From positions 2,134 to 66,133 of the forward strand of contig DASUBU010000211.1 in NCBI GenBank assembly GCA_035763125.1: DNA of 64,000 bases. Reading direction: 5' to 3'. Position 1 is the first letter of the stretch, and the number at the start of each line of letters is the position of its first letter. Below are positions 8,030-42,271 of this stretch, piece by piece. This stretch comes from Ktedonobacterales bacterium. Lineage in GTDB: Bacteria > Chloroflexota > Ktedonobacteria > Ktedonobacterales > JADMIN01. Below the pieces are notes generated by a model. It was not told the DNA's origin, searched no databases, and saw nothing but the letters and a program-made list of their open reading frames with translations. Made by a program: the position numbers and the translations under genes.

Positions 8030-8031
8030 GA

Positions 8032-8268
8032 CTAAGTCCCCCTGTGCTTTCGTTCCGCTTCGCGTGCGAGGCGGATGCCTTCTCGCACTTCGGTTTCTTG
8101 GTAGTGTTTGGCGTCCTCCCCGTCCTTATCCTTACCCGGTAAGTTGACGTTGTATCGTCCCAACAATGGATGACGCCACACGGTGTGGTCACCCTTGCCT
8201 CGGCCGCGTTGCTGTTCAAAGCCAGCTTGTCGCAGATCGCGCTTCAGCTCGCGAATCTTCCGCGGCAT
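8032..8268 (-). CDS. hicA: HicA-family toxin (mRNA interferase)
   Basis: Internal ATG of ORF 8032..8490: MPRKIRELKRDLRQAGFEQQRGRGKGDHTVWRHP. This fits the YcfA/HicA pattern G-x-H...W. Confidence 0.7.
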   Translation of the reverse strand: MPRKIRELKRDLRQAGFEQQRGRGKGDHTVWRHPLLGRYNVNLPGKDKDGEDAKHYQETEVREGIRLAREAERKHRGT

Positions 8269-8278
8269 TATACCCTCA

Positions 8279-26318: not shown

Positions 26319-27581
26319 ATGAGAAAGCGCACGTTCGCGCGCAGGGCGCTGGCGAGGGCCGTGGGGGCGCTGTGGCTGCTGCTCGGCACCGCGAGCGCCA
26401 CCGGGCTGGCGGCGGTCCCGGTCGCGCACGCCGCCGGCTCGTGCGACAACGGCTGCATTCATTGGGATTCAAGTATGATCTACGCCGGCCAGAACAACGG
26501 CTATCCTGAGGGGCCGGTCGGAGAGCATGCGCTGGTACATGGGGAGGGTTTCAGCGCCGAGACGGGGCAGGCGCTCACGTTCAAGGTGGTCAAGGGTGAC
26601 GTCAACAATAGTACTGATTCGGAGTTCTGCAAGCTCGAGCCCACCAAGGTGCCGCTCAATGGCACTGCGACGCCCGACGGCTCCGGAAACTTCGACTTCG
26701 GCTTCGACTGGCCGGGAGGCGCTGGCAGCGGCCAGTGGAGCATCTGCGCCTACCGCGCCGCCGACAGCTCGACCATCTTCAACGTAGATGACGGCCCCTT
26801 TGCGGTGCTCTCGTCGCAGCCGCCTTCGCTCAGCCTCTCAAAGAGTACGGTCGCGCCTGGCGCGCATCTGACCATCACCGGAAAACACTGGCTGCCTGCG
26901 CAGGGCAACATCTTCGTCTATGTCGGCCCCTGCGCCGATTGCGATGGCGCACCGGTGGCTTCGGCGATGGTCAGCTCCGCCGCCGACGGCTCGTTCTCGG
27001 TCACGCTGCCGATTCCGGCCAATACGTCGCCCAATAGCTACATCGCTAGCGCGCATACCCAGACCGGCGTGCTCGATATCGGCCCCCATGGTCCACACGT
27101 CAAGATTGCCATACCGGCGCCGACAGCTACGCCCAAACCGACAGCCACCGCAACCAGCGCGCCAACCGCGACCGCTGTGCCGTCCGCTGGCACCGGGAGC
27201 ACGTCTACGAGCGGTGGGGCCGGCGGCTCGGCGACGGTGATCGCACTACTGGCATTCGCGGCGCTGCTGCTGGCGGTGATCACTGTGCTGGTCGTGACGC
27301 TGGTGCGCCGGGGCAAGCGGCCGCAAACCGGACCACCGGGCAACTTCGGCGGACCAGGCGGGCCTGGTGGCGGCTACGGGCAGGCTCCAGTAGGTGCCTA
27401 TCCGCCCGCGCCGGGGACCTATCCGCCGGCGGGCGGCGCCTATCCGACGCCACCTGGGAGCTACCCAACGCCTCCTGGCGGCCAGACGATGCCGGGCCAG
27501 TATGGCCAGCCCGAGCCCTGGCATCCAGGCGACAACGACGCGCCGACCATCCAGACGCCGGCCGACCCCTACGGGCGCTGA
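26319..27581 (+). CDS. Hypothetical secreted, membrane-anchored protein with a Gly/Tyr/Pro-rich cytoplasmic tail
   Basis: Signal-peptide-like N-terminus MRKRTFARRALARAVGALWLLLGTASATG. Cys-containing beta-rich ectodomain. TM segment VIALLAFAALLLAVITVLVVTLV. Tail GAYPPAPGTYPPAGGAYPTPPGSYPTPPGG. Confidence 0.6.
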   Translation: MRKRTFARRALARAVGALWLLLGTASATGLAAVPVAHAAGSCDNGCIHWDSSMIYAGQNNGYPEGPVGEHALVHGEGFSAETGQALTFKVVKGDVNNSTDSEFCKLEPTKVPLNGTATPDGSGNFDFGFDWPGGAGSGQWSICAYRAADSSTIFNVDDGPFAVLSSQPPSLSLSKSTVAPGAHLTITGKHWLPAQGNIFVYVGPCADCDGAPVASAMVSSAADGSFSVTLPIPANTSPNSYIASAHTQTGVLDIGPHGPHVKIAIPAPTATPKPTATATSAPTATAVPSAGTGSTSTSGGAGGSATVIALLAFAALLLAVITVLVVTLVRRGKRPQTGPPGNFGGPGGPGGGYGQAPVGAYPPAPGTYPPAGGAYPTPPGSYPTPPGGQTMPGQYGQPEPWHPGDNDAPTIQTPADPYGR

Positions 27582-28498
27582 GGCGGATCCTCGACCGGGG
27601 CGATCTCCAGCACTTTGTGCGGCAGCCACGCTCCGGCCGCGGCCTCCCAGCGCGCCAGCCCCAGGAAACGCCCATCGGTCGAATACGCGCGCAGCAGCTC
27701 GCCTTCGGCTGGCGGCTCGGCAATCAGCGACGTCGCGGCGAAGCGCAGCGGCTGGCCGTTCTTCAGGCGTGCCGCCTGGTCCGGCCCCAGGATCGCCGCA
27801 CGGCGGTCCAGCAGCGCCTCGTCGGGCGCGTAGAGGTGATCGCGCCACGCCTCGCCCGCCAGCGCCTCTTCGAGTGCTTCCAGCGCGAGCGCCTGGCGTA
27901 GGGAAAAGGGGCCACTGCGTGTGCGCACGAGGCCCGCCAGGTGGGCGCCGGTGCCCAGGCGCGCGCCGAGATCGTGCGCCAGCGAGCGAATATAAGTGCC
28001 CTTGCCACACTCGACGTCCAGCACGAGGTCTGGCGGCTCCCAGGCCACCGGCCGCAGCGCGTAGATCACTACCGGGCGTGGCTCAGGCGTCACCTGCTCG
28101 CCGGCGCGCGCCAGCTTATAGAGCGGCTGCCCCCCTCGCTTGATCGCCGAGTAGAGCGGCGGCACCTGGAGCTGCTCGCCCAGGAACGCCGGCAGCGCCG
28201 CCTCGATCTCGGCCAGCGTGAGGGCGACCGGCGCCTCGCGCACGACCGTTCCTTCGGCATCGTAGGTATCGGTCTCGACGCCGAAGCGCACCGTCGCGCG
28301 GTAGGCTTTGCCGCTCTCGCTGAGGTATTCCGCCACGCGCGTGGCCTGGCCCGCCAGCACCGGCAGCACGCCGGTGGCCAGCGGATCGAGTGTGCCGGCG
28401 TGGCCGACGCGTTTCTGCCCCAGCAGCCGGCGCACGCGCGCCACCACGTCGTGCGAGGTCATGCCGGCTGCTTTGTGAATCACGAAGATGCCATCCAT
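27569..28498 (-). CDS. truB: tRNA pseudouridine(55) synthase
   Basis: GIFVIHKAAGMTSHDVVARVRRLLG.KRVGHAGTLDPLATGVLPV, the catalytic Asp motif. Confidence 0.9.
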   Translation of the reverse strand: MDGIFVIHKAAGMTSHDVVARVRRLLGQKRVGHAGTLDPLATGVLPVLAGQATRVAEYLSESGKAYRATVRFGVETDTYDAEGTVVREAPVALTLAEIEAALPAFLGEQLQVPPLYSAIKRGGQPLYKLARAGEQVTPEPRPVVIYALRPVAWEPPDLVLDVECGKGTYIRSLAHDLGARLGTGAHLAGLVRTRSGPFSLRQALALEALEEALAGEAWRDHLYAPDEALLDRRAAILGPDQAARLKNGQPLRFAATSLIAEPPAEGELLRAYSTDGRFLGLARWEAAAGAWLPHKVLEIAPVEDPPQRP

Positions 28499-28548
28499 GG
28501 CAGGAAGTATAGCAGCGCCCCCGCAGACTCAGTGTGCGGTGTGCGGCC

Positions 28549-29757
28549 TCAGTCATCAATCGCCTGATAGGCCAGCGTCCAGAAGTCGAGGCAGACATTC
28601 GGAGCGCTGGGGGATGTCCAGGCGCGCTGCGTCATCAAGATGGTGACCATATCTTCACGGGGATCCGCATACCAGGAGGTGCCGAGGCCACCGTCCCAGC
28701 CGAACCGGCCGGGCACCTCGGCCACGCCGGTGCGCCGCGTGACGATGGAGACGCCGAAGCCCCAGCCGTGGCTGGCAAAATAGCCCGGCACGAGACCGGA
28801 GACCGCCTTCTGCTCGGGCGTGAGCTGATCCGTCGTCATGGTCTCGACTGAGAGCCTTGACAGGAGGCGCCCGCCGCCGTACGTGCCCTGCCTCAGCATC
28901 ATCTGCCCGAAGGCCAGGTAGTCGTCTACGGTCGAGAGCAGCCCGCCGGCGCCGGAGGGGAAGGCGGGCGGGTGGCTCCACTGGCCGCCCATGGCCTCGT
29001 CATAGACCGCGAGCGCGCCGGTTTCGGGATCGTTCGCGTAGCTGGTTGCCAGCCGGTCGAGGTTGGCGGCTGGCACGCTGAAGCTGGTATCTCGCATGCC
29101 GAGCGGCTCGAAGATGCGCTCGCGAAAGTACGTCTCCAATGGCTTGCCGGAGGCCCGCGCGATCAACACACCCAACACGTCGGACCCCGTGTTGTACATC
29201 CAGCGCTCGCCCGGCTGGTGCATGAGTGACAGCGTGCCCAGGCGGCGCATCCACTCGTCCGGCCCAGGCATCGCCCCCGGCGCCGGCGGACCCATGCCGA
29301 TCTGCAGCTCGCTGGCGGCCCGCAGGATTGGATAGGCATCGGGTGGCGCGAGCATCTGGCCGAAGCCCATGCGGAAGGTGAGCAGATCGCGGACGGTGAT
29401 CGGCCGGTGTGCTGGCACCGTGTCGTCGAGCGGCCCGTCGAGCCGCTTCAGGACGCGGCGGCCGGCTAGCTCGGGCAGCAGGCGATCTACCGGCTCGTCC
29501 AGCCGCAGCGCGCATTCCTCCACCAGGAGCATCGTCGCCACGGCGGTAATCGGCTTGGTCATCGAGGAGATGCGGAAGATTGTGTCGCGCTGGATTGGGT
29601 CGCCGCCGGCAGCCTTCGCGCCAAGCGCGTCCACATGCACCTCGCCACGCCGGCTGACCAGCATGACGAGCCCGGGCACCTCGCCGCGCTCGATATAGCC
29701 AGCCATGACGTCACGCAGACGGTCGAGCCGCGTCTTGGAGAGTCCTGCGCTGTTCAT
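28549..29757 (-). CDS. Serine hydrolase, beta-lactamase / PBP4* family
   Basis: SxxK motif FRISSMTKPITAV. The length and overall pattern are typical of class C-like esterases. Confidence 0.8.
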   Translation of the reverse strand: MNSAGLSKTRLDRLRDVMAGYIERGEVPGLVMLVSRRGEVHVDALGAKAAGGDPIQRDTIFRISSMTKPITAVATMLLVEECALRLDEPVDRLLPELAGRRVLKRLDGPLDDTVPAHRPITVRDLLTFRMGFGQMLAPPDAYPILRAASELQIGMGPPAPGAMPGPDEWMRRLGTLSLMHQPGERWMYNTGSDVLGVLIARASGKPLETYFRERIFEPLGMRDTSFSVPAANLDRLATSYANDPETGALAVYDEAMGGQWSHPPAFPSGAGGLLSTVDDYLAFGQMMLRQGTYGGGRLLSRLSVETMTTDQLTPEQKAVSGLVPGYFASHGWGFGVSIVTRRTGVAEVPGRFGWDGGLGTSWYADPREDMVTILMTQRAWTSPSAPNVCLDFWTLAYQAIDD

Positions 29758-29987
29758 TGTCCCAGTCCTTCCTGCTTGGCTCCCGTCGGGGCTGCTCTGC
29801 TTCTTTTACTCGCATAGTTGCCGCCATCTGCCGCATCCTTTTGTCGTCAGCCGCCTCGTTGCTCGTTGTTGGCGAACGAGAGCCTCTGCGCGCTAAAGGC
29901 ACGACGGAGCTGGCTTGAGCGCCGTTGGCCCCATACCGTACCCACCGGCGTACGTCAGTTTGGGCGCGGCGGCCGTAGCTCTCAGCG

Positions 29988-30434
29988 CTAGATACGCCCC
30001 TCGTGCAGCATGCTGACCGCTTTGGCGATGCGCCGCTGCCGCGTCTCGTCGGTCTTCGCGTCTTCGATTGGGAGCACGACGCGCCGTTTGTTGCTGTAGG
30101 ATAAGCCGTCGAAGAAGCGTTTGGCGTGTGGGTCACGGTCGAGGGCGTCCGCGAAGTCAGGCGGTACGCTTACTTCGCGCAGCTCCGTGTCCAGCTCGAG
30201 GTCAACGTCCACTTCGTCGCCCGCGGCGACCCCCGCGTGCTCGCGGACGTCCGAACTGATGCCGAGCATGAATTCCCCGCCCATGGTCGCCACGGTGTTG
30301 CGGTAGGTGTAGCCGTTGATGGTGACGCGGACCGCCGGCTTCTTACTGGATCCGAGGCTCGTCACCACCTCAGGTGGAACGCGAATTCCCGTCGCGGTCT
30401 TGCCGTTGAGCTGGATGGTGGCCCGAAACTTCAT
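29988..30434 (-). CDS. DUF1905 + YdeI/OmpD-associated family protein
   Basis: MKFRATIQLNGKTATGIRVPPEV...VRVTINGYTYRNTVATMGGEFMLGIS. C-terminus ...RRVVLPIEDAKTDETRQRRIAKAVSML. Confidence 0.7.
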   Translation of the reverse strand: MKFRATIQLNGKTATGIRVPPEVVTSLGSSKKPAVRVTINGYTYRNTVATMGGEFMLGISSDVREHAGVAAGDEVDVDLELDTELREVSVPPDFADALDRDPHAKRFFDGLSYSNKRRVVLPIEDAKTDETRQRRIAKAVSMLHEGRI

Positions 30435-30696
30435 ACGACCTCCTCGAACAGAATGGCCTCTAGCAGTCTGGAGTCGTCATCGGTCCGGCATTCCCAGTTG
30501 GGGGCTTTCCCCCAGATGTTGACGTATGCTACCAGAGCCAGCGCGAGCGACATCAGGGCAGGGCAGCGCCATGGTCTTTGCCCTCAATTGTGCGCTGTCC
30601 TGGATTCGGGAGGCTGGCTGTGGGCTCGCGGCGTTCACCATCCAACGTGCCAGTACCGCTACCGCGTACCCGGGGCCGGTCGGACGCAGAGACTCA

Positions 30697-32220
30697 CTAT
30701 GCGCACACTTCTTCCTCGACGGCACGCTCGACGACGTTGGTCGCGTCCTCAGAAGCGCCTTCTGTCGCGGCTGGCGATTCGCGGGTCAGCAGGGTGGCCG
30801 CCAGCACAAGCGCCACCAGCACCAGTCCGGCGCTGATTGCCCAGGTGAGGTGATAGCCGCCGCTGAGCGCCACAATGGCTTTCTGGCCGTCGCCAGCGAG
30901 CTGGTCCGTGCGGCCAGCCGAGATGGTGGCGAGGATAGCGAGGCCGAGCGCCGCACCTACCTGGGTGGTCGTATTCAGCAGGCCGGAGGCCAGCCCCGCG
31001 TCGCTGGGTGTGACGTCCGCCATCGCGAGGAGGCTCAGCGCCGTGAAGGACATCCCCGCGCCGATGCCAAGCAGCACCATCGGCAGCAACAGGTCGCGCA
31101 CGTAGTCGGCGTTCAGCGGGGAGCGCGCGAAGAGCGCAAGCCCGGCCACGATGAACGCGAGGCCGGCCAGCAGTGCCCTGCGCGACCCGAACCGCGTGAT
31201 CAGGCGAGCCGCCAGGCCAATCGAGAACGCTGCCATCGCGATGGTGTTCGGCAGAAACGCGAGGCCAATCGCCAGCGGGCCGTAATGCAGAACACGCTGC
31301 ATGTCGAGCGAGCCGAGGAAGAAGAAGCCGAAGAAGGCGCTGACCATCAACGCCTGGATCAGGTTCGCGCCTGACAAATTGCGCCCACGGAACAAGCGCA
31401 GCGGCATGAGCGGGTTGGAGGCCATCGCCTGGCGGATGATGAATGCCACCAGCAGCGCCAGCGCGAGGCCGCCCAGCCCGAGCGTATGCAGCGAGCCCAG
31501 GCCATAGACGTCGGACTCGACAATGGTGTAGACACCCAGCATCAGCGCGGCGGTGACCAGGACGGCGCCGAGCACGTCCGCTCCGTGGCCCAGGCCAAGG
31601 CCTTCATCGGACTCGATCAGGCGGGCGCCCAATGCCATGGTTGCCAGCCCAATCGGCAGGTTGACGAAGAAGATCCAGTGCCAGCTAATCGCCTGGGTGA
31701 TGAGCCCGCCGGCCATCAGGCCGATCGCGCCGCCCGCCGAGGCGACGAAGGCGAAGATGCCCATCGCCTGCGCCCGCTCCTTGGGCTCTGGGAACAGTGT
31801 CACGATCATTCCCAGAATCACGGCGGAGCTCACCGCGCCGCCGACGCCCTGTATGAACCGCGCGGCGACCAGCACCGGCTGGCTGAACGATAGCCCTGAT
31901 AGCAGCGAGGCTACGATGAATATCGCCAGCCCAATCAGGAAGATGCGCTTGTGTCCGATCAGATCGCCGAGACGCCCCGCCAGCAGCATGATGCCGGCGA
32001 AGGCGATCAGGTAGGCGTTCACGACCCAGGCCAGGCCGGATTGCGAGAAGCCGAGATCACGCTGGATCGAGGGGAGTGCGACGTTGACGATGGTCGTATC
32101 CACGACGATCATGAGAAAACCGATGCACAGAACGATCAGCGACAGCCAGCGTGAGCTGACGGGCCGTGCGCGCTCCAAGATGCGCAGCCTCACATCGGTC
32201 AGTCCTGCAGTCGTACTCAC
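30697..32220 (-). CDS. MFS transporter, DHA2 (EmrB/QacA, 14-TM) family
   Basis: LIVLCIGFLMIVVDTTIVNVALPSIQRDLGFS. GTG at 32220 preceded by the strong RBS AGGAGGAGAGG. The ORF-track start at 32313 is probably too far upstream. Confidence 0.8.
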   Translation of the reverse strand: MSTTAGLTDVRLRILERARPVSSRWLSLIVLCIGFLMIVVDTTIVNVALPSIQRDLGFSQSGLAWVVNAYLIAFAGIMLLAGRLGDLIGHKRIFLIGLAIFIVASLLSGLSFSQPVLVAARFIQGVGGAVSSAVILGMIVTLFPEPKERAQAMGIFAFVASAGGAIGLMAGGLITQAISWHWIFFVNLPIGLATMALGARLIESDEGLGLGHGADVLGAVLVTAALMLGVYTIVESDVYGLGSLHTLGLGGLALALLVAFIIRQAMASNPLMPLRLFRGRNLSGANLIQALMVSAFFGFFFLGSLDMQRVLHYGPLAIGLAFLPNTIAMAAFSIGLAARLITRFGSRRALLAGLAFIVAGLALFARSPLNADYVRDLLLPMVLLGIGAGMSFTALSLLAMADVTPSDAGLASGLLNTTTQVGAALGLAILATISAGRTDQLAGDGQKAIVALSGGYHLTWAISAGLVLVALVLAATLLTRESPAATEGASEDATNVVERAVEEEVCA

Positions 32221-34895: not shown

Positions 34896-35330
34896 CTATT
34901 CGTGCGCGTGGCGCACGACGATCGGCGTCTGGCCGCTGAAGACCTCGGCCTCCAGGCTGTGCTGCGCGGGGCTGGGCGTCATCGTCACCAGCACGACGGC
35001 GTTGGTGCGCGCGGTGATGCCGTGTGGCACGCGGGCCTCCAGCGCGAAGAGCGTGCCCACGCGGCCCTCAGTGCTGTGCTGGCCCGCGGTGAACGTGATC
35101 TGCCCGCGCACCACCTGCACCAGGATCTGGCTGGAAGTCGTATGGGACTTCAGGATCTGCCCCGCCTTGAAGGCAAAGAGCACCACACGCGCTGCCCCCG
35201 TGTCCGCTAGTATCCGCACGGATGGGCCGTCCTCCTGAAAGCGCGTGAGCGCGCGCAGATCGAGCGCCACCAGTGCGCCCTCATCCTCTTGCGGCTGCCC
35301 GTCGGCAGCATTGTCTTGCACAGCGTTCAT
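34896..35330 (-). CDS. Cupin-domain protein
   Basis: AARVVLFAFKAGQILKSHTTSSQILVQVVRGQITF...LEARVPHGITA. ATG at 35330 preceded by GGGAGAA. Confidence 0.7.
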   Translation of the reverse strand: MNAVQDNAADGQPQEDEGALVALDLRALTRFQEDGPSVRILADTGAARVVLFAFKAGQILKSHTTSSQILVQVVRGQITFTAGQHSTEGRVGTLFALEARVPHGITARTNAVVLVTMTPSPAQHSLEAEVFSGQTPIVVRHAHE

Positions 35331-35440
35331 CTGAGTTCTCCCACTTTCGTGTGTCGTGAGCGCCCCCAAATCAGCGGAGCGGCTGGCATGCCCGCGGAAG
35401 ACCTGCCGCCGCCGCCCGCCGCTCCGCCAAGGTTGCCTGG

Positions 35441-35707
35441 TCAGTCTCTCGTTGCTTCTGGCGTCGCGCCCAGTCGCGTGATGCGAATCGCCCAGCGGTC
35501 CGGTCCCTGCTCTTCGGGCGCCCAATCGAAGGCGCCAGGTCGCTCGGCCATCAGCTGGTAGTATAGCGGGCGCGGATCGTGATCGTTGACGAGCATCAGT
35601 GCTTCGTCTGGCTGCAGCGCATCGAGGCGCTCGAAGATCAGCGCATGCCGGTCGCGCGGCACGAGGGGGCGTACGTCCAGTACCGTCGCCTTGGAGGATG
35701 TTGCCAT
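35441..35707 (-). CDS. DUF2249 domain protein
   Basis: TVLDVRPLVPRDRHALIFERLDALQPDEALMLVNDHDPRPLYYQL, an 88-aa single-domain protein. Confidence 0.75.
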   Translation of the reverse strand: MATSSKATVLDVRPLVPRDRHALIFERLDALQPDEALMLVNDHDPRPLYYQLMAERPGAFDWAPEEQGPDRWAIRITRLGATPEATRD

Positions 35708-35804
35708 AGCGTGGTGTCTCCACTCCTGATGACTAATGACGACTCGACTCCACCGCCGAATCGCCGTGCTGCATAGAGTGTGTCGCGGCGAGTGGTATGG
35801 GCGC

Positions 35805-35820
35805 TGCGACCTTTGTCGCA
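35805..35820. promoter_or_regulatory. CRP/FNR-type palindrome TGCGACCTTTGTCGCA (site 1)
   Basis: Perfect 16-bp palindrome read directly. Lies in the divergent region between the DUF2249 start (35707, minus strand) and the DUF59 start (35930, plus strand). Confidence 0.6.
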
Positions 35821-35929
35821 GCCGTTGCAGCGGTCGGGGCGCTATCGTTCGAGCGACCCCGGTGGGAGCGCAGCTCGTTGCGAATGGGAAGCTGGCGCCG
35901 GCGGGGCCGCTAGGCGAGGAGACCCAACG

Positions 35930-36259
35930 ATGGCGCTGGACGGCGACGAGCGCGACAACACGCGCGCGAAGATTATGGAAGCACTGAAGAACGTCTACGA
36001 TCCCGAGCTAGGCGTGAACGTGGTGGACCTCGGCCTAGTCTACGATGTTGAGCTGCAACCCGAGGGCCACGTCTTGATTACTATGACACTCACCACGCCA
36101 GGCTGCCCGATGCACGAGTCCATCGGGATGGGTGTCTCCGCCGCGCTGGATACTGTGCCGGGCATCACCGGCGGCGAGATTCGCATTGTCTGGAACCCAC
36201 CCTGGGAGCCGGCTATGATGACGGAGGAGGGCCGCCGCCAACTGGGCTTCTGGGACTGA
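35930..36259 (+). CDS. DUF59 / MIP18-family metal-sulfur cluster assembly factor (SufT/PaaD-like)
   Basis: IMEALKNVYDPELGVNVVDLGLVYDVE......ITMTLTTPGCPMHE. Confidence 0.8.
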   Translation: MALDGDERDNTRAKIMEALKNVYDPELGVNVVDLGLVYDVELQPEGHVLITMTLTTPGCPMHESIGMGVSAALDTVPGITGGEIRIVWNPPWEPAMMTEEGRRQLGFWD

Positions 36260-36402
36260 TGCTGATTCCGGCATGTTCAACACGTTCGTCGCAGCGTGGC
36301 AGTTGCCTATACTCGAAACGGTCGAATGTAGAGCGATATCAAGCCGACCTCGATACGTGTCCTCGTTGCCCCCACGCGACGAGTCACGCAGCCACCATCG
36401 CC

Positions 36403-37110
36403 TCAATACTCATGAGCAGCCGCCACACAGCCGCCCGCGTCAGTGTAGAGCGGCGTAGTGTCCACCGGCCGATTGCGATCGGGATTGAGCACGATGCTGT
36501 CGTTCTCCGCCTGATCTTTGGTGGCGTCGTTCTCACAGGCCACCACGCCGGATCGCAGCGAAGGGGGCATGTACAGGTCAACGTGGTGGAAGTGATCGGC
36601 GCCCCAGTCAGCCTCGCACTCGACGCATTGGTCTTCCATGATGAAGTACTTGTGCCAGCGCGGCGCATACACGATGGTGCCGACTGGCAGCCAGCGCTCG
36701 TCGGCAGCCAGGGTGATGGGATCGGCGTAGGTGCCGGTGCCGCCGGCTCGCGCGTGTTTCCCCTGCGGCGCCGGGTAGGCGATGTTACGCGAGCCGGCGG
36801 GATCGTTATCGGCCGCGGCGTAGAATGTCTGCCAGACCTTCTGCGTGGTTCCCCGCCGGCTTGGTGGCGTCGTTGGGCGGGGGGTGGCGCTGCTCGCACC
36901 TGTAGCGGTAGCGGTGGGCTCCGGCGTCCCCATGCCGTTTGCGGTGCCTGACGCGATCGCGGTGGCAGCGGCGGCCGTGGCGGTGGCTCCGCTGCTTCCA
37001 TGTGGCGCGCGGCCAGCGCCCGTGCCAGCGGCGCCGGATGGGAAGGTGGTGGCACATGCCTGGAGGACCAGCAGCACGAGCGACAAAGCGAGCACGCGGT
37101 AGCGATTCAT
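36403..37110 (-). CDS. Secreted protein with a Thr/Ala-rich linker and a possible 3D/DPBB-fold (MltA-like) C-terminal domain
   Basis: N-terminus MNRYRVLALSLVLLVLQAC, which is lipobox-like. C-terminal part AGGTGTYADPITLAADERWLPVGTIVYAP.WHKYFIMEDQC..C....HVDLYM. The fold assignment is tentative. Confidence 0.5.
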   Translation of the reverse strand: MNRYRVLALSLVLLVLQACATTFPSGAAGTGAGRAPHGSSGATATAAAATAIASGTANGMGTPEPTATATGASSATPRPTTPPSRRGTTQKVWQTFYAAADNDPAGSRNIAYPAPQGKHARAGGTGTYADPITLAADERWLPVGTIVYAPRWHKYFIMEDQCVECEADWGADHFHHVDLYMPPSLRSGVVACENDATKDQAENDSIVLNPDRNRPVDTTPLYTDAGGCVAAAHEY

Positions 37111-37198
37111 GATGAGCACCCAGCCAGTGAACGAGCAGCACTCTTGCGGCGTTATTGCCAATCTCAGCCATGCTACCCCGCACACTGGCGCGTGCTGA

Positions 37199-37399
37199 CA
37201 AAAGTACTGGGAGCGGTCTAATGCAGACGACTGGCTCAACCGCTTTCGGCGCCTCAGCGTCCGCTACGCGCGCAGCGCCAACATCCATCAGGCGTTCCTC
37301 TCCCTTGGCCGCTCGCTTATCTGCTGGCAGACGTTGTATAGGCAAGGGATGCAATGCCACCGGGGAGAAGACCGGCAATCAACCGCGACAGATTTCTGA
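37199..37399 (+). pseudogene. Relic of the C-terminus of an IS5-family (DDE) transposase
   Basis: Hand translation gives KYWERSNADDWLNRFRRLSVRYARSANIHQAFLSLGRSLICWQTL. This matches the conserved C-terminal block of IS5-family transposases (Y..RN..E..FN.LK.FRR.ATRY.K...N). There is no upstream catalytic part. Confidence 0.55.
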
Positions 37400-37487
37400 G
37401 GGGACACCTGCCGCGCGCGGCGCTATCGTTGGGGGGATGCGCGCACATGCTGCCGTGCGGCGCGCTCTCATTGGAGGGGAGGATGAC

Positions 37488-37985
37488 ATGGCGGAAGGGC
37501 GCCCCCCGCGGTTAATTCTGCTGTGCGGACTGCCTGGCGTGGGGAAGACAACGCTCGCTCGACGGCTGGCGGATGAAGTCTCAGCCGTACGTCTGGGCGC
37601 CGACGAGTGGATGGCACACCTGGGCATCAATTTGCATGACGAGGCGATGCGCGACCGGCTCGAACGGTTGTTGTGGCAGCTCGCCCAAGACCTCCTCCGG
37701 CTCGGCCAGAGTGTCATCCTGGAGTGCGGGTTCTGGGCACGCGTGGAGCGAGACGAGAAACGGCTCGGCGCCCGTGCGCTGGGAGCGGGCGTGGAGCTCT
37801 ACTATCTCGATGTGCCCATCGAGGAGCTCTGGCGGCGGATCGAGCAGCGCAATGCCGAGAGCACCGTCGGGAGCGTGCCGATCACGCGCGAGCAGTTCGA
37901 CAGCTACCTGCCCTACTTTGAGGCACCGCAGCGCGCTGAGCTCGATCTGTTCGATGACCCTGCCGTTGCTTCGACTGATCCATAG
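37488..37985 (+). CDS. P-loop kinase-like ATP-binding protein (AAA_33 / zeta-toxin-like fold)
   Basis: LILLCGLPGVGKTTLARRLA. ATG at 37488 preceded by GGAGGGGAGGA. Confidence 0.65.
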   Translation: MAEGRPPRLILLCGLPGVGKTTLARRLADEVSAVRLGADEWMAHLGINLHDEAMRDRLERLLWQLAQDLLRLGQSVILECGFWARVERDEKRLGARALGAGVELYYLDVPIEELWRRIEQRNAESTVGSVPITREQFDSYLPYFEAPQRAELDLFDDPAVASTDP

Positions 37986-38093
37986 CCAGCGCACGATGCG
38001 AGCCGATGTCACCGTCCCAACAGCCTCCGCGGCCTGCATGCATGCGCAGCCCTAGCACAGCTCAGAGATGGCGAGATGCGTGTTAACCTGGGT

Positions 38094-39473
38094 TCAGCGG
38101 CGCAGCACCGCGAAGACGTTCGCCGCCGCCAGCGCCAGCCCGGCGCCCAGCGCGGCGCACGCGAGGCGTAGCGGCCAGAGCCAGCCTGCCGGGGCGCAGA
38201 GGACCGCGCAGAGCAGTCCGACGTTGATCAGCCACCAGCTCGCCTCGGCCCAGCGGCTATGGATCATGTCGCGCATCAGCGGCACCTGACGCCGGCCCAC
38301 CAGCGGGGCGTAGCGCTCCTGCCACAGCAGGAACGGCACGATCTTGTAGAGGTACCCGACTGTGCTTTGGCCCAGCCAGCCGACGAAGGCCGCCAGCCCG
38401 AGCGCGAAGAGCAACGGAGGCGTGGTCTGGCCAGAGACCACCACAGCCACCCCAACCGGCGTGAGGATTACCAGCCACGCCACCGCGGCGATGCCGTGGC
38501 GCTGGGTCACGTCGAGCGGCTTGCGCCGCCGGGCGCGCAGCATGCGCCGGTAGTCGTACGCGAAGAGCCACACGGCGCCACAGAAGACGGCGCCGCCCGC
38601 CGCCACGAGCGCGCCGATCCCCATCACGAAGCCGGCTGCCATCGTGAGCAGGCCACCATTGAGCAGCGCGAAGACCCAGCGTCCGAGCCGGTCGTCGTGG
38701 CTGTGGGCGAGCGCGAACATGCGCACCAACGTATACGAGACGCCCATCAGCGTGCAGGTCAGCCAGCCAGCCACGCCCAGCGCGATGTGTGCCGGGAGCA
38801 CGCGTCCCAACCCCGTACCGAGGAAGCCGAGCCGCAGATCGAGGGCGGCTGTCAGGCCAAGCGCGACGACGGCACAGAGATAGCCAGCCGCCGCGGCCAG
38901 ATAGCGTGCCGTCAGCGGGCGCTGGCGCGCGCTGGCGATCGTCATCCACAGCACGGCCACATGGTGCCCGATAGCCACGAGCACGAGCGTGCCCCCCGCG
39001 GCGATCGCCAGCGGCTGCATGATCCAGAAGCCGGAGACCAGGATCGCGACACCCGTTACGAACACGGGGTATTCCCAGCGGACCAGCCGCGTCGCACGCA
39101 GCGGCGCGACCAGCACAACTGGCGCAAGCTGGAGCGACGCCCCCAGGATGATCATCGTGAGCCAGCCGAGGGTGGCGACATGAACCAGCGCCAGGACATG
39201 CGGCGCCAGCGGGCCGGCGGTTGCGTCAGCGGCAAGCCAGGGGAGCGCCAGGCCAAAGAGCGCCGCGGCGCCGATGCCCGTCAGCAGAAACGGCAACGGC
39301 ACGCTGAGTGGCACACCACCGCGTGTTCCCATGCCGCCCAGCCCCGAGACGGTGATGCCAGGGGTGGCCGCGGCGCGCATCGGCGCGGGTGCGGCGGGAG
39401 GGGGGGCGTGCGGAGAACCACCATTGGAAGGCGCGGGCGCCGCTGGACGCCCGTCTTGCTGCTGCATCGCCAT
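38094..39473 (-). CDS. Uncharacterised polytopic membrane protein (about 12 TM)
   Basis: The hydrophobic profile extends across the whole ORF. Recurrent motif H..(A/G).GW....(L/M)G.....(V/A)P. Probably co-transcribed with the DUF2249 gene immediately upstream. The start is ATG 39473, with 39503 as the alternative. Confidence 0.7.
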   Translation of the reverse strand: MAMQQQDGRPAAPAPSNGGSPHAPPPAAPAPMRAAATPGITVSGLGGMGTRGGVPLSVPLPFLLTGIGAAALFGLALPWLAADATAGPLAPHVLALVHVATLGWLTMIILGASLQLAPVVLVAPLRATRLVRWEYPVFVTGVAILVSGFWIMQPLAIAAGGTLVLVAIGHHVAVLWMTIASARQRPLTARYLAAAAGYLCAVVALGLTAALDLRLGFLGTGLGRVLPAHIALGVAGWLTCTLMGVSYTLVRMFALAHSHDDRLGRWVFALLNGGLLTMAAGFVMGIGALVAAGGAVFCGAVWLFAYDYRRMLRARRRKPLDVTQRHGIAAVAWLVILTPVGVAVVVSGQTTPPLLFALGLAAFVGWLGQSTVGYLYKIVPFLLWQERYAPLVGRRQVPLMRDMIHSRWAEASWWLINVGLLCAVLCAPAGWLWPLRLACAALGAGLALAAANVFAVLRR

Positions 39474-39613
39474 GACGCCATCGCTCCTCACGTGTGGGCG
39501 CAAGACTGCTCGTATCTGGCATACCCCTTTGGGGCGAGTGGAAGCGCGCCGCAGTCAGCGGGAGCGTGCCGCTCTGCCGCTCTCTGTTTCTTCCGCGGTC
39601 TTGAGAGGGGCGC

Positions 39614-39883
39614 TTAGCGCGCGGCAGCCGGCTCGCGTGTGAAGCGCACGATCCACTCGTCGGCGGCCACGCGCTCCGTCTCGTAGGTGAAGCCGCGGCC
39701 GCCGAGCACGCCATAGAGCGGTTGCGGCTCGAAGGGCGCGATCAGCACGAAGGCCTCGCCCGGCTGCAGCCTCTCGGCGGCCTCCAGAATCCGCACGAAC
39801 GGCTCATCGCCGCGCTCCAGATCGGGCCGCACGTCCACAATCTCGCGCGCGTGGGCTTGCCAGGTCTCGCTCAGCGTCGTCAT
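39614..39883 (-). CDS. DUF2249 domain protein (second copy)
   Basis: REIVDVRPDLERGDEPFVRILEAAERLQPGEAFVLIAPFEPQPLYGVL. ATG at 39883 preceded by GGAGGAG. Confidence 0.75.
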   Translation of the reverse strand: MTTLSETWQAHAREIVDVRPDLERGDEPFVRILEAAERLQPGEAFVLIAPFEPQPLYGVLGGRGFTYETERVAADEWIVRFTREPAAAR

Positions 39884-40004
39884 CGTTGTTCTCCTCCGCG
39901 AACGGTCGCATAGCATGTCGGTGTCGTCATGTGGACCCTCGCCGCCGGACCCGAACGACCGCCGCCTTGCGCTGGTACCGTATCGTAGGCGACACTGAGG
40001 GTGC

Positions 40005-40020
40005 AGCGACCTTTGTCGCA
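40005..40020. promoter_or_regulatory. CRP/FNR-type palindrome AGCGACCTTTGTCGCA (site 2)
   Basis: 15 of 16 positions identical to site 1. Lies in the divergent region between the DUF2249 start (39883, minus strand) and the crp/fnr start (40090, plus strand). Confidence 0.6.
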
Positions 40021-40089
40021 TCTTGGTGAAATGTGGAGGTGTTGCCCGCGCACACCGCGCGGCTTGCCGGAAGGCGAGGCGAGGCCTGT

Positions 40090-40755
40090 ATGCCGATTGA
40101 GCTCGACGTGCTCCGGCGGATTCCGCTCTTTGCCGAGCTGGAGCCCGCGGACCTGACGCACGTAGCCGCCGTGACACGCGAGCGCCGCTATGACCGCGGC
40201 GAAATCATCCTGGTCGAAGGGGAGCGCGCGGGAGCGTTCCAGTACGTCTATTCCGGGCTGGTCAAGGTCTACAAGACCTCGCCGGAGGGCAAGGAACAGG
40301 TGCTGCGGCTGATCGGATCGGGCCACACCTTCAACGACGTGCCCGCGTTCGATGGCGGGCCCAATCCTGCCAGCGCCGCCGCCATGGAGCCAAGCGTCAT
40401 CTATTCGGTGGGCCGCGCACAGCTTCAGCAGCTCATGCTGGAGCGCCCCGCCATCGCCGCGGGGGCCGTTCGCACGCTGGCGAGCGCGCTGCGCCACCTC
40501 GTCTCGCTGGTTGAGGATCTCTCGTTCCGCCACGTCACAGAGCGCGTTGCCAAGATTCTGCTCGACCAGGAAGAAGCGGCTGCCGAGGGCCAGCCGCCGC
40601 ACCGGCTGACGCAACAAGAGATGGCCGCGATGGCTGGCACCGCCCGCGAGATGGTCGGTCGTGCGCTCAAAGACCTGGAGGCATCCGGCGCGATTGCCAT
40701 GCGCCAGGGACGGGCCGTGGTGCTCGACCGCGAGCGCCTGCGCCTGCTCGCTTAA
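40090..40755 (+). CDS. Crp/Fnr-family transcriptional regulator
   Basis: cNMP-binding-like N-terminus: LRRIPLFAELEPADLTHVAAVTRERRYDRGEIILVEGE. C-terminal HTH: LTQQEMAAMAGTAREMVGRALKDLEASG. No N-terminal Cys cluster is visible, so it is probably not an O2-sensing [4Fe-4S] FNR. Confidence 0.85.
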   Translation: MPIELDVLRRIPLFAELEPADLTHVAAVTRERRYDRGEIILVEGERAGAFQYVYSGLVKVYKTSPEGKEQVLRLIGSGHTFNDVPAFDGGPNPASAAAMEPSVIYSVGRAQLQQLMLERPAIAAGAVRTLASALRHLVSLVEDLSFRHVTERVAKILLDQEEAAAEGQPPHRLTQQEMAAMAGTAREMVGRALKDLEASGAIAMRQGRAVVLDRERLRLLA

Positions 40756-40836
40756 GCGCTCGCGTATCTCAAACGCATCACGCTCCTTCTCGTATGCCTC
40801 ACGCTCGCATCACGCTTCGACTGCACACTCAGAGTT

Positions 40837-40852
40837 TGTGACTTTTGTCACT
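40837..40852. promoter_or_regulatory. CRP-type palindrome TGTGACTTTTGTCACT (site 3), upstream of nirK
   Basis: Matches TGTGA-N6-TCACA at 9 of 10 positions and shares the GAC-YTTT-GTC core with sites 1 and 2. Lies 107 bp upstream of the nirK ATG. Confidence 0.6.
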
Positions 40853-40958
40853 CTCGTCCATTCTCCCTCCGCACTACGCTGCGAACCAATGCATCGTTGA
40901 CATTGTTCGCCCGGCCTCACTCGCCTCAAGGGGCCAGTGGCGTGAGAGGGAGAGACAG

Positions 40959-42185
40959 ATGAGCAAGCAGCTCTTGGACAAGCCCGACTCGGTGGAGGCG
41001 GGCGCTGACGGAGCAAAATCCATCCGAGCAGCGGCACCGACACCAACAGCGGCCGCACCAACAGCGACCACGACGCCGAGAGCGACGCCAACCGTGACCG
41101 CGACCCGCGTCGCGCCTCGTCCCTCCGGCCAGGAGATGTCCGCCTGGTGGCGCGAGGACAGCAGCAAACGACTGAAGGTGACGGCTGCCGGCTCAGTCGC
41201 TGGTCTGCTGATCCTGGTTGCGCTGGTCGTCGCGCTGATCGCCAATGCCGGCGGCGGTACACAGACGGCCTCCAACACGAGCGGGATGACTGGGATGAGC
41301 GGCGCAAGCAATACCAGCCCCATCACCACCAGCCCCAATGCGCCGGCACATCAGCTGTACAATCCGGCGCTGCCGCCTGTGGCGCAAGGCGACACCGTCA
41401 ATGTCACACTGACCGCCAAGGAATCGTTGATTAGCATCTCGAAGGGCATCGCCTACCACGCCTGGACCTTCAACGGCACAGTGCCGGGGCCTGCGCTGCA
41501 CGTGCGGCAGGGCCAGCGCATCCACTTCACGCTGGTCAACGGCACCAACATGCCGCACTCGATTGACTTCCACGCCGCGCAAACGCCCTGGAACGTGAAC
41601 TACAAGCCAATTGGGCCGGGCCAGAGCTTCAGCTTCGACTGGACCGCCAATTATCCTGGCGTCTTCATGTATCACTGCGGCACGCCGCCCGTCATGGAGC
41701 ACATCGCCAACGGCATGTACGGCGCGATCATCGTTGATCCGGCCAATGGCTGGGCGCCCGCGCAGGAATACGTGCTGGTGCAGAGCGAGTTCTACCTCCA
41801 GAAGCAGGCGGATGGCAGCTACGTCTACAATGCCACCAAGGCGATGGCCAGCACCCCCGACTTCGTGGTCTTTAACGGCTACGACGGCCAGTATCGCGAC
41901 CAGCCGATCCAGGTCAAAGCTGGGCAGCGCGTTCGCCTCTACATTGTCAACGCCGGACCGTCCGCCTTCTCAGGCTTCCACGTGATCGGCGGGATCTTCA
42001 GTGATGTCTATGCTGACGGCAACCCTGCCAACCACACGGTCGGCGACCAGACGGTTACCATTCCGCCAGGTGGCGGCACGGTGGTGGAGCTGACGATGCC
42101 CGAGGCCGGCCAGTATCCCTTCGTCACACACGCCTTCTCCGCGGCCATGAAGGGCGCCATCGGGGTCCTCCAGGCGTCGAAGTAG
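40959..42185 (+). CDS. nirK: Copper-containing nitrite reductase (NirK), N-terminally membrane-anchored
   Basis: Cu ligands NMPHSIDFHAA, FMYHCGTPPVMEHIANGMYG, FSGFHVIGG and FVTHAF. N-terminal TM helix VAGLLILVALVVALIA after a Thr/Ala-rich segment. Confidence 0.85.
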   Translation: MSKQLLDKPDSVEAGADGAKSIRAAAPTPTAAAPTATTTPRATPTVTATRVAPRPSGQEMSAWWREDSSKRLKVTAAGSVAGLLILVALVVALIANAGGGTQTASNTSGMTGMSGASNTSPITTSPNAPAHQLYNPALPPVAQGDTVNVTLTAKESLISISKGIAYHAWTFNGTVPGPALHVRQGQRIHFTLVNGTNMPHSIDFHAAQTPWNVNYKPIGPGQSFSFDWTANYPGVFMYHCGTPPVMEHIANGMYGAIIVDPANGWAPAQEYVLVQSEFYLQKQADGSYVYNATKAMASTPDFVVFNGYDGQYRDQPIQVKAGQRVRLYIVNAGPSAFSGFHVIGGIFSDVYADGNPANHTVGDQTVTIPPGGGTVVELTMPEAGQYPFVTHAFSAAMKGAIGVLQASK

Positions 42186-42243
42186 ACCGCCGCGTCACCC
42201 GCTACGGGCAGTAAGCCACTCGGCAGATAACCCATCGCAATCG

Positions 42244-42271
42244 CTCGGGCCTCCCTTCGCGGAGGCCCGAG
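42244..42271. terminator. Strong GC hairpin between the convergent nirK and LLM oxidoreductase genes (putative bidirectional terminator)
   Basis: ctcgggcctcc-cttcgc-ggaggcccgag, a perfect 11-bp stem. There is no clear U-tract. Confidence 0.5.

Follow-up and report, generated by a model that had tools for sequence, protein, structure and literature searches.

The gene for a copper nitrite reductase in a 64-kb stretch of DNA from a soil ktedonobacterium (hereafter the window, meaning the whole stretch analysed) lies alongside genes for two DUF2249 proteins, a cupin, a DUF59 protein, a 12-helix membrane protein and a Crp-family regulator (Table 1). This raises the question of whether these genes form a single regulon and, if so, to what signal it responds. 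We find that the locus probably represents a denitrification or nitrosative-stress regulon of the Ktedonobacteria (Chloroflexota), in which a Crp-family protein would activate transcription from a shared palindrome in response to a signal of the NO/nitrite type.

Table 1. Features of the locus, in window coordinates
Feature	Position	Strand	Description
Cupin	34896..35330	-	144 aa; follows DUF2249a in its unit; Cupin_2 E 2e-5 (weak, under the Pfam cut-off)
DUF2249a	35441..35707	-	88 aa, NDHDPxPL type; PF10006 E 1e-29
-10-like hexamer, DUF2249a-cupin	35777..35782	-	CACACT, weaker; starts 30.5 bp from operator 1 centre; putative
Operator 1	35805..35820	.	TGCGACCTTTGTCGCA (= cTGCGACCTTTGTCGCAg); flanked by the DUF2249a-cupin and DUF59 units, which diverge from it
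-10-like hexamer, DUF59	35843..35848	+	TATCGT; starts 30.5 bp from operator 1 centre; putative promoter element
DUF59/FeS_assembly_P protein	35930..36259	+	109 aa, SufT/PaaD-like; PF01883 E 2e-21
Membrane protein	38094..39473	-	459 aa, 12 helices; haem-copper oxidase/NOR superfamily by predicted fold
DUF2249b	39614..39883	-	89 aa, APFEPxPLY type; heads the membrane-protein unit; PF10006 E 1e-18
-10-like hexamer, DUF2249b-membrane protein	39977..39982	-	TACGGT; starts 30.5 bp from operator 2 centre; putative
Operator 2	40005..40020	.	AGCGACCTTTGTCGCA; flanked by the DUF2249b-membrane protein unit and crp, which diverge from it
Crp-family regulator (crp)	40090..40755	+	221 aa; cNMP_binding + HTH_Crp_2; candidate palindrome binder
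Operator 3	40837..40852	.	TGTGACTTTTGTCACT; 5' of nirK
-10-like hexamer, nirK	40875..40880	+	TACGCT; starts 30.5 bp from operator 3 centre; putative
NirK, copper nitrite reductase	40959..42185	+	408 aa; TIGR02376 E 4e-59 (under the model cut-off)
G+C-rich hairpin	42244..42271	+	11-bp stem, 6-nt loop; 3' of nirK; probable transcript end

A conserved Crp-type palindrome

A preliminary description of the locus had reported three 16-bp palindromes lying 70-122 bp upstream of start codons. All three were located exactly where it had placed them, and the measured gaps between site and start agree (98 bp for DUF2249a, 110 bp for DUF59, 122 bp for DUF2249b, 70 bp for crp and 107 bp for nirK). Searching the whole 64 kb with TGYGACNTTTGTCRCA at up to two mismatches recovered these three sites and no other, against 0.23 matches expected, and none of 100 shuffles reached three. 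The window was also scored with a weight matrix derived from 80 unique sites of other genomes only, the window itself being left out; operators 1, 2 and 3 scored 25.1, 21.9 and 21.9 bits respectively, the next-best match in the window 7.1 bits, and the top score over 40 simulated windows was 17.3.

For phylogenetic footprinting we used 92 related Ktedonobacteria loci (1.09 Mb), including 48 genome loci for which the membrane protein served as anchor and a separate, independent anchoring on nirK. Cultured carriers are Thermogemmatispora carboxidivorans and Ktedonosporobacter rubrisoli. Across the 92 loci the motif takes the form cTGYGAC-W4-GTCRCAg; perfect TGYGAY-N4-RTCRCA sites number 69, where 1.3 would be expected. 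Allowing up to one mismatch gives 165 sites, of which 124 lie within 450 bp 5' of homologues of the regulon genes. A site precedes DUF59 in all 45 of 45 related loci, DUF2249b in 45 of 53, crp (divergent from DUF2249b in nearly all loci) in 43 of 55 and DUF2249a in 26 of 34. The footprint thus supports the earlier proposal of a single regulon in which the DUF2249 units, DUF59, crp and nirK share a Crp-type operator, and the palindrome is kept upstream of the DUF2249, DUF59 and nirK orthologues. The attachment of nirK stands in part: of the 37 loci in the nirK-anchored set, 27 have the site upstream of nirK, and crp is often its neighbour there, but about 10 of the 37 lack it, and most of the genome loci found through the membrane protein have no nirK within 10 kb. 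The core of the regulon accordingly comprises crp, DUF2249b-membrane protein, DUF59 and DUF2249a-cupin, with nirK as a frequent, not universal, member. Further genes flanked by such sites in other genomes code for NnrS-like proteins, hemerythrins (also as a DUF2249 fusion), ferredoxins and a small Cys-rich protein; this set matches known NO regulons (PMC1274295), the first three being typical members of such regulons.

Products of the proposed regulon and their module

The membrane protein had been described as unknown, and this holds to the extent that it matches no Pfam or NCBIfam model, including that of NnrS, from which it thereby differs. Its fold, by contrast, is recognizable: Foldseek searches with an AlphaFold2 model (pLDDT 82.8) recovered cbb3 CcoN (3mk7; E 8.5e-7, TM 0.69) and NorB (4xyd; TM 0.66), and on this predicted structure it is a homologue of the haem-copper oxidase/NOR superfamily. 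Only two of its histidines, H98 and H229, are invariant, and it is probably a single-haem protein. The combination of a 12-helix, three-unit haem-copper-oxidase fold with just two conserved histidines is shared with the HCO-homology (HCOH) proteins, NnrS included, reportedly treated by Pei, Li, Kinch and Grishin in 2014 (Protein Sci 23:1220). HCOH proteins also resemble it in having DUF2249 and denitrification genes as neighbours (PMC11218638).

With few exceptions among the 48 genome loci, DUF2249b precedes the membrane protein, and the cupin follows DUF2249a in many related loci. In locus L012 DUF2249a and a hemerythrin domain form a single protein; in L013, L019, L020, L025 and L031 its position is taken by DUF2249 ORFs of about 250 aa with hemerythrin-like matches just upstream. 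The DUF59 protein scores 110 bits against TIGR02945, under the cut-off of that model. In NirK, which is matched by the Geobacillus CuNiR (3x1e; E 4e-74), the copper-ligand motifs HSIDFHA, YHC...H...M, FHVIG and THAF are kept, and a long N-terminal extension includes a hydrophobic stretch.

The module is conserved across phyla. On Sinorhizobium meliloti pSymA a DUF2249/oxidase-like/2xDUF2249/DUF59 operon with a divergent cupin is placed between nnrR-nirV-nirK-nnrS and nor, and cupins likewise flank the module in L098 and L100. The DUF59 gene adjoins the oxidase-like gene in distant relatives, where the module takes the form of a cupin/oxidase-like/DUF59 operon or of an oxidase-like/DUF2249/DUF59 operon. 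The tie of these families to denitrification is already known and not new here. DUF2249 is, we presume, the family catalogued as COG4309. COG4309 has been assigned to the NnrR/NsrR regulons (PMC1274295), and in Haloferax DUF2249 genes are induced up to a log2FC of 8.65 under denitrifying conditions (PMC11218638).

The regulator and its likely signal

As had been noted, the regulator is the only Crp/Fnr protein encoded in the window and sits within the cluster. Its reported lack of an N-terminal Cys cluster extends to the entire protein, which contains no cysteine at all, and 38 of 49 orthologues are likewise cysteine-free; on this ground it is not an O2-sensing Fnr. The best match among solved structures is Mycobacterium tuberculosis CRP (E 9e-27), with DNR also recovered (E 5e-21), and by sequence the regulator is nearer to actinobacterial cAMP-CRP than to DNR. 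The cAMP-contact residues are replaced (pocket FNDVPAFDGGPNPASA versus FGELSIFDPGPRTSSA in M. tuberculosis CRP), those binding the phosphate among them, so that it is not a cAMP receptor either. Across the orthologues FND.PA.DGGPNPASA, in the ligand pocket, is strongly conserved. No His, Cys or Met suited to haem and no haem or Fe-S ligand residue is invariant, and none of the regulator's residues points to a particular effector.

Three characterized systems offer comparisons. The NnrR regulon of alpha-proteobacteria likewise has a Crp/Fnr-family activator encoded beside nirK and palindromes 5' of nirK, an NnrS-type membrane protein and accessory genes (PMC1274295). However, it belongs to a different phylum and includes nor, which was absent within 10 kb in all 92 of our loci; its box is TTGCG-N4-CGCAA rather than the CRP-like TGYGAC-N4-GTCRCA, and the ktedonobacterial regulator is no NnrR orthologue, being 25% identical to S. 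meliloti NnrR and scoring better against M. tuberculosis CRP. Desulfovibrio HcpR and Pseudomonas DNR are similar in being Crp/Fnr proteins free of a Cys cluster that control nitrosative-stress or denitrification genes, and HcpR further in its CRP-like box TGTGA-N6-TCACA (PMC1274295). Both are NO-responsive. Among the differences, our regulator has no evident conserved haem ligand, hcp did not turn up in the loci, and the DNR box is TTGAT-N4-ATCAA. In Thermus thermophilus the DUF2249 proteins DrpA and DrpB are made from a promoter dependent on DnrT, a Crp-family master regulator of denitrification, and feed back on that regulator, both points of likeness (PMC6282519). That system differs in controlling nitrate reductase and in its DrpB, which combines DUF1858 with two DUF2249 domains; in the passages of PMC6282519 consulted, no oxidase-like membrane protein, DUF59 or cupin partner is mentioned.

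Gene content points to NO, nitrite or a related cue as the most likely signal. The regulon could instead be real but respond to something else. A partner protein such as hemerythrin-DUF2249 or the cupin might relay oxygen limitation or the redox state, metal status might be the cue, or no ligand might be needed, with control only by the regulator's own expression level. The lack of invariant haem and Fe-S ligands, the frequent absence of nirK near the core module and the suggestion of metal-centre handling by DUF59 and the cupin speak for such a cue, as do the Thermus DUF2249 proteins, putative nitrate sensors that act ahead of the Crp-family regulator (PMC6282519). We regard it as unlikely, though the best of the alternatives, given that the genes whose membership varies (nirK and those for NnrS-like proteins, hemerythrin and ferredoxin) point to nitrogen oxides, as does the nir-nor setting in S. 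meliloti, and that the conserved pocket argues for a small-molecule effector.

Promoter geometry and proposed mechanism

A -10-like TAnnnT hexamer begins +29.5 or +30.5 from the centre of the site in 44 of 44 DUF59 promoters of the related loci, 43 of 44 orthologous DUF2249b promoters and 19 of 27 nirK promoters (about 106 of 115 taken together); in several of the DUF2249a orthologous promoters listed, CATACT occupies about the same offset, determined by hand for L014 only. No consensus -35/-10 pair was found in these promoter regions, which together with the fixed spacing indicates a class II Crp/Fnr activation layout. This geometry was not seen at the crp promoter, where the site centre lies a median of 70 bp from the start codon in the related loci and could overlap the promoter itself. 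The palindrome might therefore be a repression operator, at crp or similar promoters or even throughout, a reading that we consider improbable in view of the class II layout at the other three promoter types.

Under the activation reading, a dimer of the Crp-family protein would bind cTGYGAC-W4-GTCRCAg, centred about 41.5-42.5 bp 5' of where transcription would begin at four promoters (the class II position), and activate DUF2249b with the oxidase-like membrane protein, DUF59, DUF2249a with the cupin, and nirK. Operator 2 also fronts crp and would allow autoregulation of either sign. NirK converts nitrite to NO, and the remaining products, namely the putative single-haem membrane protein, its TusA-like DUF2249 partners, a DUF59 maturation factor and the cupin, may belong to a conserved module whose task is to deal with NO or to protect and mature metal centres.

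Probable identity of the binding protein

The recognition helix of the regulator reads REMVGR, which fits a TGTGA-type half-site; the aligned helix of M. tuberculosis CRP is RETVNK, and that of Escherichia coli CRP, which we take to be RETVGR, has the RExVGR pattern in common with the regulator. This helix and the position of crp next to the sites favour control by the adjacent regulator, as the preliminary description had suggested. Motifs are often common to several Crp/Fnr family members, and a paralogue encoded elsewhere in the genome might bind the palindrome with the adjacent crp merely a target; we give this little credence in light of the fitting helix, the crp-adjoining sites in 43 of 55 loci and the lack of a second family member in the window.

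In a genome of 67% G+C, so short a palindrome (6+6) might in theory fold into a hairpin, yet chance matches or structural elements (hairpin, terminator or dispersed repeat) can practically be dismissed: the match and matrix statistics above stand against them, sites hold fixed positions in the promoters of orthologues that share 38-80% identity, they are found between divergent genes, a place where transcripts do not end, and the arms do not covary, positions 3 and 14 being complementary in 54 of 124 sites against 0.525 expected under independence, which fits a protein-binding site rather than a hairpin. The hairpin that probably does mark a transcript end lies downstream of nirK; the terminator scan did not list it because it has no T-run.

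A conserved palindromic operator upstream of nirK and its neighbors

Examination of the gene cluster around nirK, in what is a metagenome-assembled genome of the Ktedonobacterales (Chloroflexota), recovered all three 16-bp palindromes of the preliminary description at exactly the coordinates reported there, every copy in an intergenic region. Operator 1 lies 98 bp from the start codon of the minus-strand gene for DUF2249a (an 88-residue protein of the NDHDPxPL type, encoded in a unit with a cupin) and 110 bp from that of the DUF59 gene. Operator 2 is 122 bp from the start of the minus-strand gene for DUF2249b (89 residues, APFEPxPLY type, in a unit with a 459-residue oxidase-like membrane protein) and 70 bp from that of crp, which codes for a Crp-family regulator, and operator 3 is 107 bp from that of nirK. 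Searching with TGYGACNTTTGTCRCA and allowing up to two mismatches gave three matches against 0.23 expected, with no further one in the 64 kb. A scan of the window for the core GYGAC-N4-GTCRC with one mismatch recovered 26 matches against 21.9 expected, i.e. no enrichment, which indicates that the signal depends on the whole motif of 16-18 bp and its A/T-rich center. When the window was scanned with a weight matrix trained on 80 unique sites from other genomes, the window itself being left out, the three operators ranked first with 25.1, 21.9 and 21.9 bits; the fourth-best site scored 7.1 bits, and the top score among 40 simulated windows was 17.3 bits. The flanking genes (an AraC regulator, a DUF1579 gene, a luciferase-like oxidoreductase and an MmyB-type regulator) are unrelated, and the cluster thus spans about 34896-42271.

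Operators, -10-like hexamers and selected genes of the cluster (window positions)
Feature	Position	Strand	Sequence	Remark
Operator 1 (DUF2249a/DUF59)	35805-35820		TGCGACCTTTGTCGCA	intergenic
Operator 2 (DUF2249b/crp)	40005-40020		AGCGACCTTTGTCGCA	intergenic
Operator 3 (nirK)	40837-40852		TGTGACTTTTGTCACT	intergenic
-10-like hexamer, DUF59	35843	+	TATCGT	+30.5 from operator 1 center
-10-like hexamer, DUF2249a-cupin	35782	-	CACACT	+30.5 from operator 1 center
-10-like hexamer, DUF2249b-membrane protein	39982	-	TACGGT	+30.5 from operator 2 center
-10-like hexamer, nirK	40875	+	TACGCT	+30.5 from operator 3 center
235-residue protein gene	36403-37110	-		signal-peptide-like N-terminus, no Pfam match
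IS5-family transposase C-terminal remnant	37163-37336	+		about 62% identity to annotated IS5 transposases, E about 1e-7
AAA_33 P-loop kinase gene	37488-37985	+		
Oxidase-like membrane protein gene	38094-39473	-		459 residues
crp	40090-40755	+		Crp-family regulator

We then collected related loci using the membrane protein as an anchor, which yielded 48 Ktedonobacteria genome loci, some of them from organisms in culture, namely Ktedonosporobacter rubrisoli SCAWS-G2 (L026) and three species of Thermogemmatispora, among them T. carboxidivorans PM5 (L039), and using NirK as an independent anchor, which yielded 44 metagenome loci. The common layout comprises crp (minus strand) and the DUF2249b-membrane protein unit (plus strand) on either side of one site, and DUF59 (minus strand) and the DUF2249a-cupin unit (plus strand) on either side of another; both divergent intergenic regions carry the palindrome in almost all of the 48 membrane-protein-anchored loci. 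In the 1.09 Mb of related loci, perfect TGYGAY-N4-RTCRCA sites number 69 where 1.3 would be expected. Allowing for one mismatch raises the count to 165 (46 expected), and 124 of these 165 lie within 450 bp upstream of homologs of the window's regulon genes. By family, an upstream site is present for 45/45 DUF59, 45/53 DUF2249b, 43/55 crp and 26/34 DUF2249a genes, and for nirK in 27 of the 37 loci with sufficient upstream DNA, where crp is often the immediately upstream gene. The preliminary description had tied the cluster into one putative nitrite/NO regulon through the shared palindrome, and this recurrence of the site upstream of orthologous DUF2249, DUF59 and nirK genes supports that reading. 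The symmetrized consensus from the related loci is cTG(C/T)GAC-WWWW-GTC(G/A)CAg. Positions 3 and 14 of the motif are complementary in 54 of the 124 sites, as against a fraction of 0.525 expected under independence; they vary independently between the two arms, as two protein-contacted half-sites do and a hairpin does not.

In nearly all related loci the membrane protein gene and DUF59 are adjacent. In the window they are separated by the segment 36403-37985, apparently inserted here with no damage to the operators. Its two protein-coding genes, for the 235-residue protein and the P-loop kinase, were rejected as regulon members, as they have no site and are missing from this position in nearly all related loci.

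Promoter geometry

Comparison of the promoters, each read in the direction of its target gene, revealed a TAnnnT hexamer beginning 29.5 or 30.5 bp from the center of the site in 43/44 DUF2249b, 44/44 DUF59 and 19/27 nirK promoters, and several of the listed DUF2249a promoters have CATACT at about the same offset (checked by hand in one locus). This geometry is missing at the crp promoter itself, where autoregulation might be either positive or negative. Class II activators of the Crp/Fnr family act from operators centered near -41.5 relative to the transcription start. If the hexamer is taken as a -10 element at -12 to -7, the predicted position of the operator is about -41.5 to -42.5, which would correspond to class II. 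A sigma-70 scan of the intergenic regions recovered no consensus -35/-10 promoter, and this is consistent with activator-dependent promoters without amounting to proof of them.

A Crp-family regulator with a replaced cAMP-binding cassette

The product of crp belongs to the Crp/Fnr family, as shown by matches of an N-terminal cNMP-binding-like barrel to PF00027 (E 4e-21) and of a C-terminal Crp-type helix-turn-helix to PF13545 (E 1e-15), and by a full-length alignment to M. tuberculosis CRP. The latter (E 9e-27) and GlxR are its closest solved relatives; DNR is further off (E 5e-21), and identity to S. meliloti NnrR is 25%, so that it does not qualify as an ortholog of either NnrR or DNR. The protein had been thought not obviously an O2-sensing FNR for want of an N-terminal Cys cluster, and in fact it contains no cysteine at all, as do 38 of 49 orthologs; it is hence not an Fnr, which is defined by the cysteine cluster that holds the [4Fe-4S] center. 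Among the orthologs we also found no invariant His, Cys or Met, a result that lends no support to heme binding of the DNR or HcpR kind and does not speak against it either. The phosphate-binding cassette for cAMP in M. tuberculosis CRP, FGELSIFDPGPRTSSA, aligns to FNDVPAFDGGPNPASA in the window regulator, with changes of G to N, E to D, R to N and T to P, and this replacement is conserved in the orthologs, which makes cAMP sensing unlikely and a defined ligand pocket, conserved as FND.PA.DGGPNPASA, likely. The recognition helix reads REMVGR (RETVNK in M. tuberculosis CRP) and retains the R-E-x-x-x-R pattern; it matches what we take to be the E. coli CRP helix, RETVGR, and judged by these residues would suit the TGYGA half-site.

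NirK and the small proteins of the module

NirK aligns with the Geobacillus copper nitrite reductase 3x1e at E 4e-74. The alignment to this structure shows that the ligands of the type 1 copper (His, Cys, His, Met) and of the type 2 copper (three His), along with the catalytic Asp/His motifs, are all kept in the conserved stretches PHSIDFHA, MYHCGT..MEHIANGM, FHVIG and VTHAF; its score to TIGR02376 is 200, below the cut-off of 296. The protein has an N-terminal extension of about 125 residues (40959-41340) in which Ala, Thr and Pro abound and whose hydrophobic part, at about residues 75-95, resembles a membrane anchor. Related NirK genes show little conservation of the extension, and tblastn alignments to them often start at residue 129. 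Two metagenome loci (L080 7276-8322 and L081 2427-3473) code for a second, divergent NirK-like protein (29% identity) convergent with the first, with no operator at either gene.

Both DUF2249 proteins are clear members of PF10006 (102.4 and 66.9 bits; cut-off 29.5). The DUF59 protein matches PF01883 (FeS_assembly_P) with 76.7 bits and has the TTPGCP motif with its conserved Cys; it falls below the cut-offs of the NCBIfam SUF_assoc and SufT equivalogs, and we accordingly do not assign it to SufT proper. The cupin gives a weak match to Cupin_2. In one related locus (L012 6576-7337) a hemerythrin domain precedes DUF2249a within a single protein of 254 residues, so that the NDHDPxPL-type DUF2249 is linked with a di-iron domain that binds O2/NO. 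At the same position, downstream of the operator on the DUF59 side, five other genomes (L013, L019, L020, L025 and L031) have DUF2249 ORFs some 250 residues long.

The oxidase-like membrane protein

The membrane protein encoded beside DUF2249b matched no model in Pfam or NCBIfam, and its profile recovered nothing from the PDB sequences even at E<=10; only fold comparison was informative. An AlphaFold2 model (pLDDT 82.8) contains 12 long transmembrane helices, and Foldseek searches with it recovered the cbb3 subunit CcoN (E 8.5e-7, TM 0.69), NorB of cNOR (TM 0.66) and CoxI of the aa3 oxidases, with TM 0.62-0.69 over the best nine matches and a probability of 1.00 to CcoN, NorB and CoxI. From the 12 helices and three-fold pseudo-symmetry of this model, the protein is predicted to adopt the fold of the heme-copper oxidase/NOR superfamily. 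A few homologs show weak matches to PF00115 that pair their helices 5-8 with the first four helices of COX1, an offset attributable to the internal three-fold repeat of the superfamily. The repeat is visible in the sequence of the membrane protein at residues 92-116 (H-x4-GWL...GAS.QL), 226-250 (H-x6-GWL...GVSYTL) and 361-378 (GWLGQS..GYLYK), the His of the first two units being lost in the third.

The six canonical histidines of heme-copper oxidases (one each in helices 2 and 6, two each in helices 7 and 10), which serve two hemes and CuB/FeB, are not retained. Within Ktedonobacteria the invariant histidines are H98, H170, H229, H257, H259 and H326; adding the S. meliloti homolog reduces these to H98 (helix 2) and H229 (helix 6), and helix 10 has no histidine. 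Alignments to S. meliloti NorB and FixN with hhalign were weak and non-significant (E 0.05-0.08, probability about 1%), and offer a hint that H98 and H229 may occupy a position of the helix-2 heme-His type. The NnrS profile (PF05940) did not match the window protein at E<=0.01. The family comprises 2,635 clusters at 50% identity (E<=1e-3). Pei et al. in 2014, in work cited in PMC11218638, reportedly described "HCO homology" proteins, NnrS among them, that have 12 helices, conserve two histidines and possibly bind one heme, and whose gene neighborhoods are said to connect them with denitrification and DUF2249; the membrane protein fits this description.

No NorB-type gene was found within 10 kb in any of the 92 loci, which leaves some room, at low probability, for the oxidase-like module itself to consume NO. 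That the membrane protein together with DUF2249, DUF59 and the cupin might form a previously unrecognized NO-handling heme enzyme or NO sensor, be it the NO consumer so far missing beside NirK in Ktedonobacteria or an auxiliary NO system in rhizobia, we regard as a speculative and rather improbable proposal.

The module beyond Ktedonobacteria and a predicted nitrogen-oxide regulon

The same module is present in S. meliloti pSymA, its operon at about 687,400-690,100 of the plasmid record. In the stretch 660000-709999 of this plasmid (L097), positions 27400-31119 carry an operon of DUF2249, the oxidase-like protein, 2xDUF2249 (TusA) and DUF59, along with a divergent gene for a pirin-type cupin, lodged between nnrR-nirV-nirK-nnrS and hemN-nor. 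The oxidase-like protein shows 31% identity to that of the window (E 6e-27). The PLSDB copy leaves all the module genes unannotated, and the literature searched yielded no paper on them. NnrR boxes number five in the pSymA stretch against 3.6 expected, i.e. not above chance, and we therefore do not claim co-regulation of the module there. A plasmid search with NirK matched Pseudomonas "multicopper oxidase" genes and no rhizobial nirK. Distant family members occur in cupin/oxidase-like/DUF59 or oxidase-like/DUF2249/DUF59 operons; the module predates the regulon.

The Ktedonobacterial system belongs with the denitrification and NO regulons governed by the Crp/Fnr family, such as those of NnrR, DNR, HcpR and DnrT; the searchable literature describes none from Chloroflexota. 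COG4309, one of the families in such regulons, we take to be the DUF2249 family. Members of NO-responsive regulons include nir, nor, nnrS, hemerythrin-type dnrN, ferredoxins and COG4309, and NnrR and DNR recognize Fnr-like boxes (TTGCG-N4-CGCAA or TTGAT-N4-ATCAA), both of which differ from the window motif (Rodionov et al., PMC1274295). The Thermus DUF2249 proteins DrpA and DrpB require the Crp-family regulator DnrT and in turn exert feedback on it (PMC6282519), and in Haloferax denitrification strongly induces the DUF2249 genes that adjoin nirK and nor (PMC11218638).

In the mechanism that we infer throughout, from binding by Crp and the sign of regulation to the signal and the biochemistry, the adjacent Crp-family protein, devoid of cysteines and of the cAMP-contact residues, would most likely activate four promoters in the class II manner. 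The activating cue, judged from the gene content of the regulon, would most likely be a nitrogen-oxide-related signal. The regulon would then couple NO production by NirK to a conserved, uncharacterized module that handles NO or metal centers.

A poorly studied class thereby gains a precisely defined operator together with a candidate regulator and a set of conserved targets, and four uncharacterized families, namely DUF2249, DUF59, the cupin and an oxidase-like membrane family for which no profile model exists, are now predicted to share one co-regulated unit. Ktedonobacteria are, to our knowledge, abundant in soil and carriers of nirK, and we know of essentially no study of their nitrogen-oxide metabolism or its regulation. 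Should NO prove to be consumed or sensed by the module, current figures for how much NO and N2O soil Chloroflexi turn over would have to be revised. Since the module is shared by the nir-nor island of S. meliloti and by distant relatives, its function can be tested in a tractable rhizobium or in cultured Thermogemmatispora or Ktedonosporobacter.

Additional genes behind the operator in related loci

In other Ktedonobacteria the operator also precedes NnrS-like genes, hemerythrin genes, a ferredoxin gene and a gene for a small Cys-rich protein. The NnrS-like product is a divergent 12-helix membrane protein of 476-505 residues that matches PF05940 only at E 0.011; its gene adjoins the cluster in 20 loci (L033 at 7075-8505, L022, L026, L029, L082 and 15 more), with the operator 5' of it in at least four, and is absent from the window. 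The Cys-rich family has no Pfam match and a motif of about MRCxECG...Y.RVD...F..VTL..G..LP.SFDGH.A.YR. It is found in L010 (8165-8524), L033 (12852-13148, followed by a hemerythrin gene), L007, L008, L011, L015, L044, L045 and L047, and its gene has the operator upstream in eight loci. Finally, in six loci (L010, L011, L015, L017, L043 from about 2432, and L045) a gene for a PhzF-family isomerase (PF02567, E 3e-40) replaces DUF2249a-cupin divergent from DUF59, behind the same operator.
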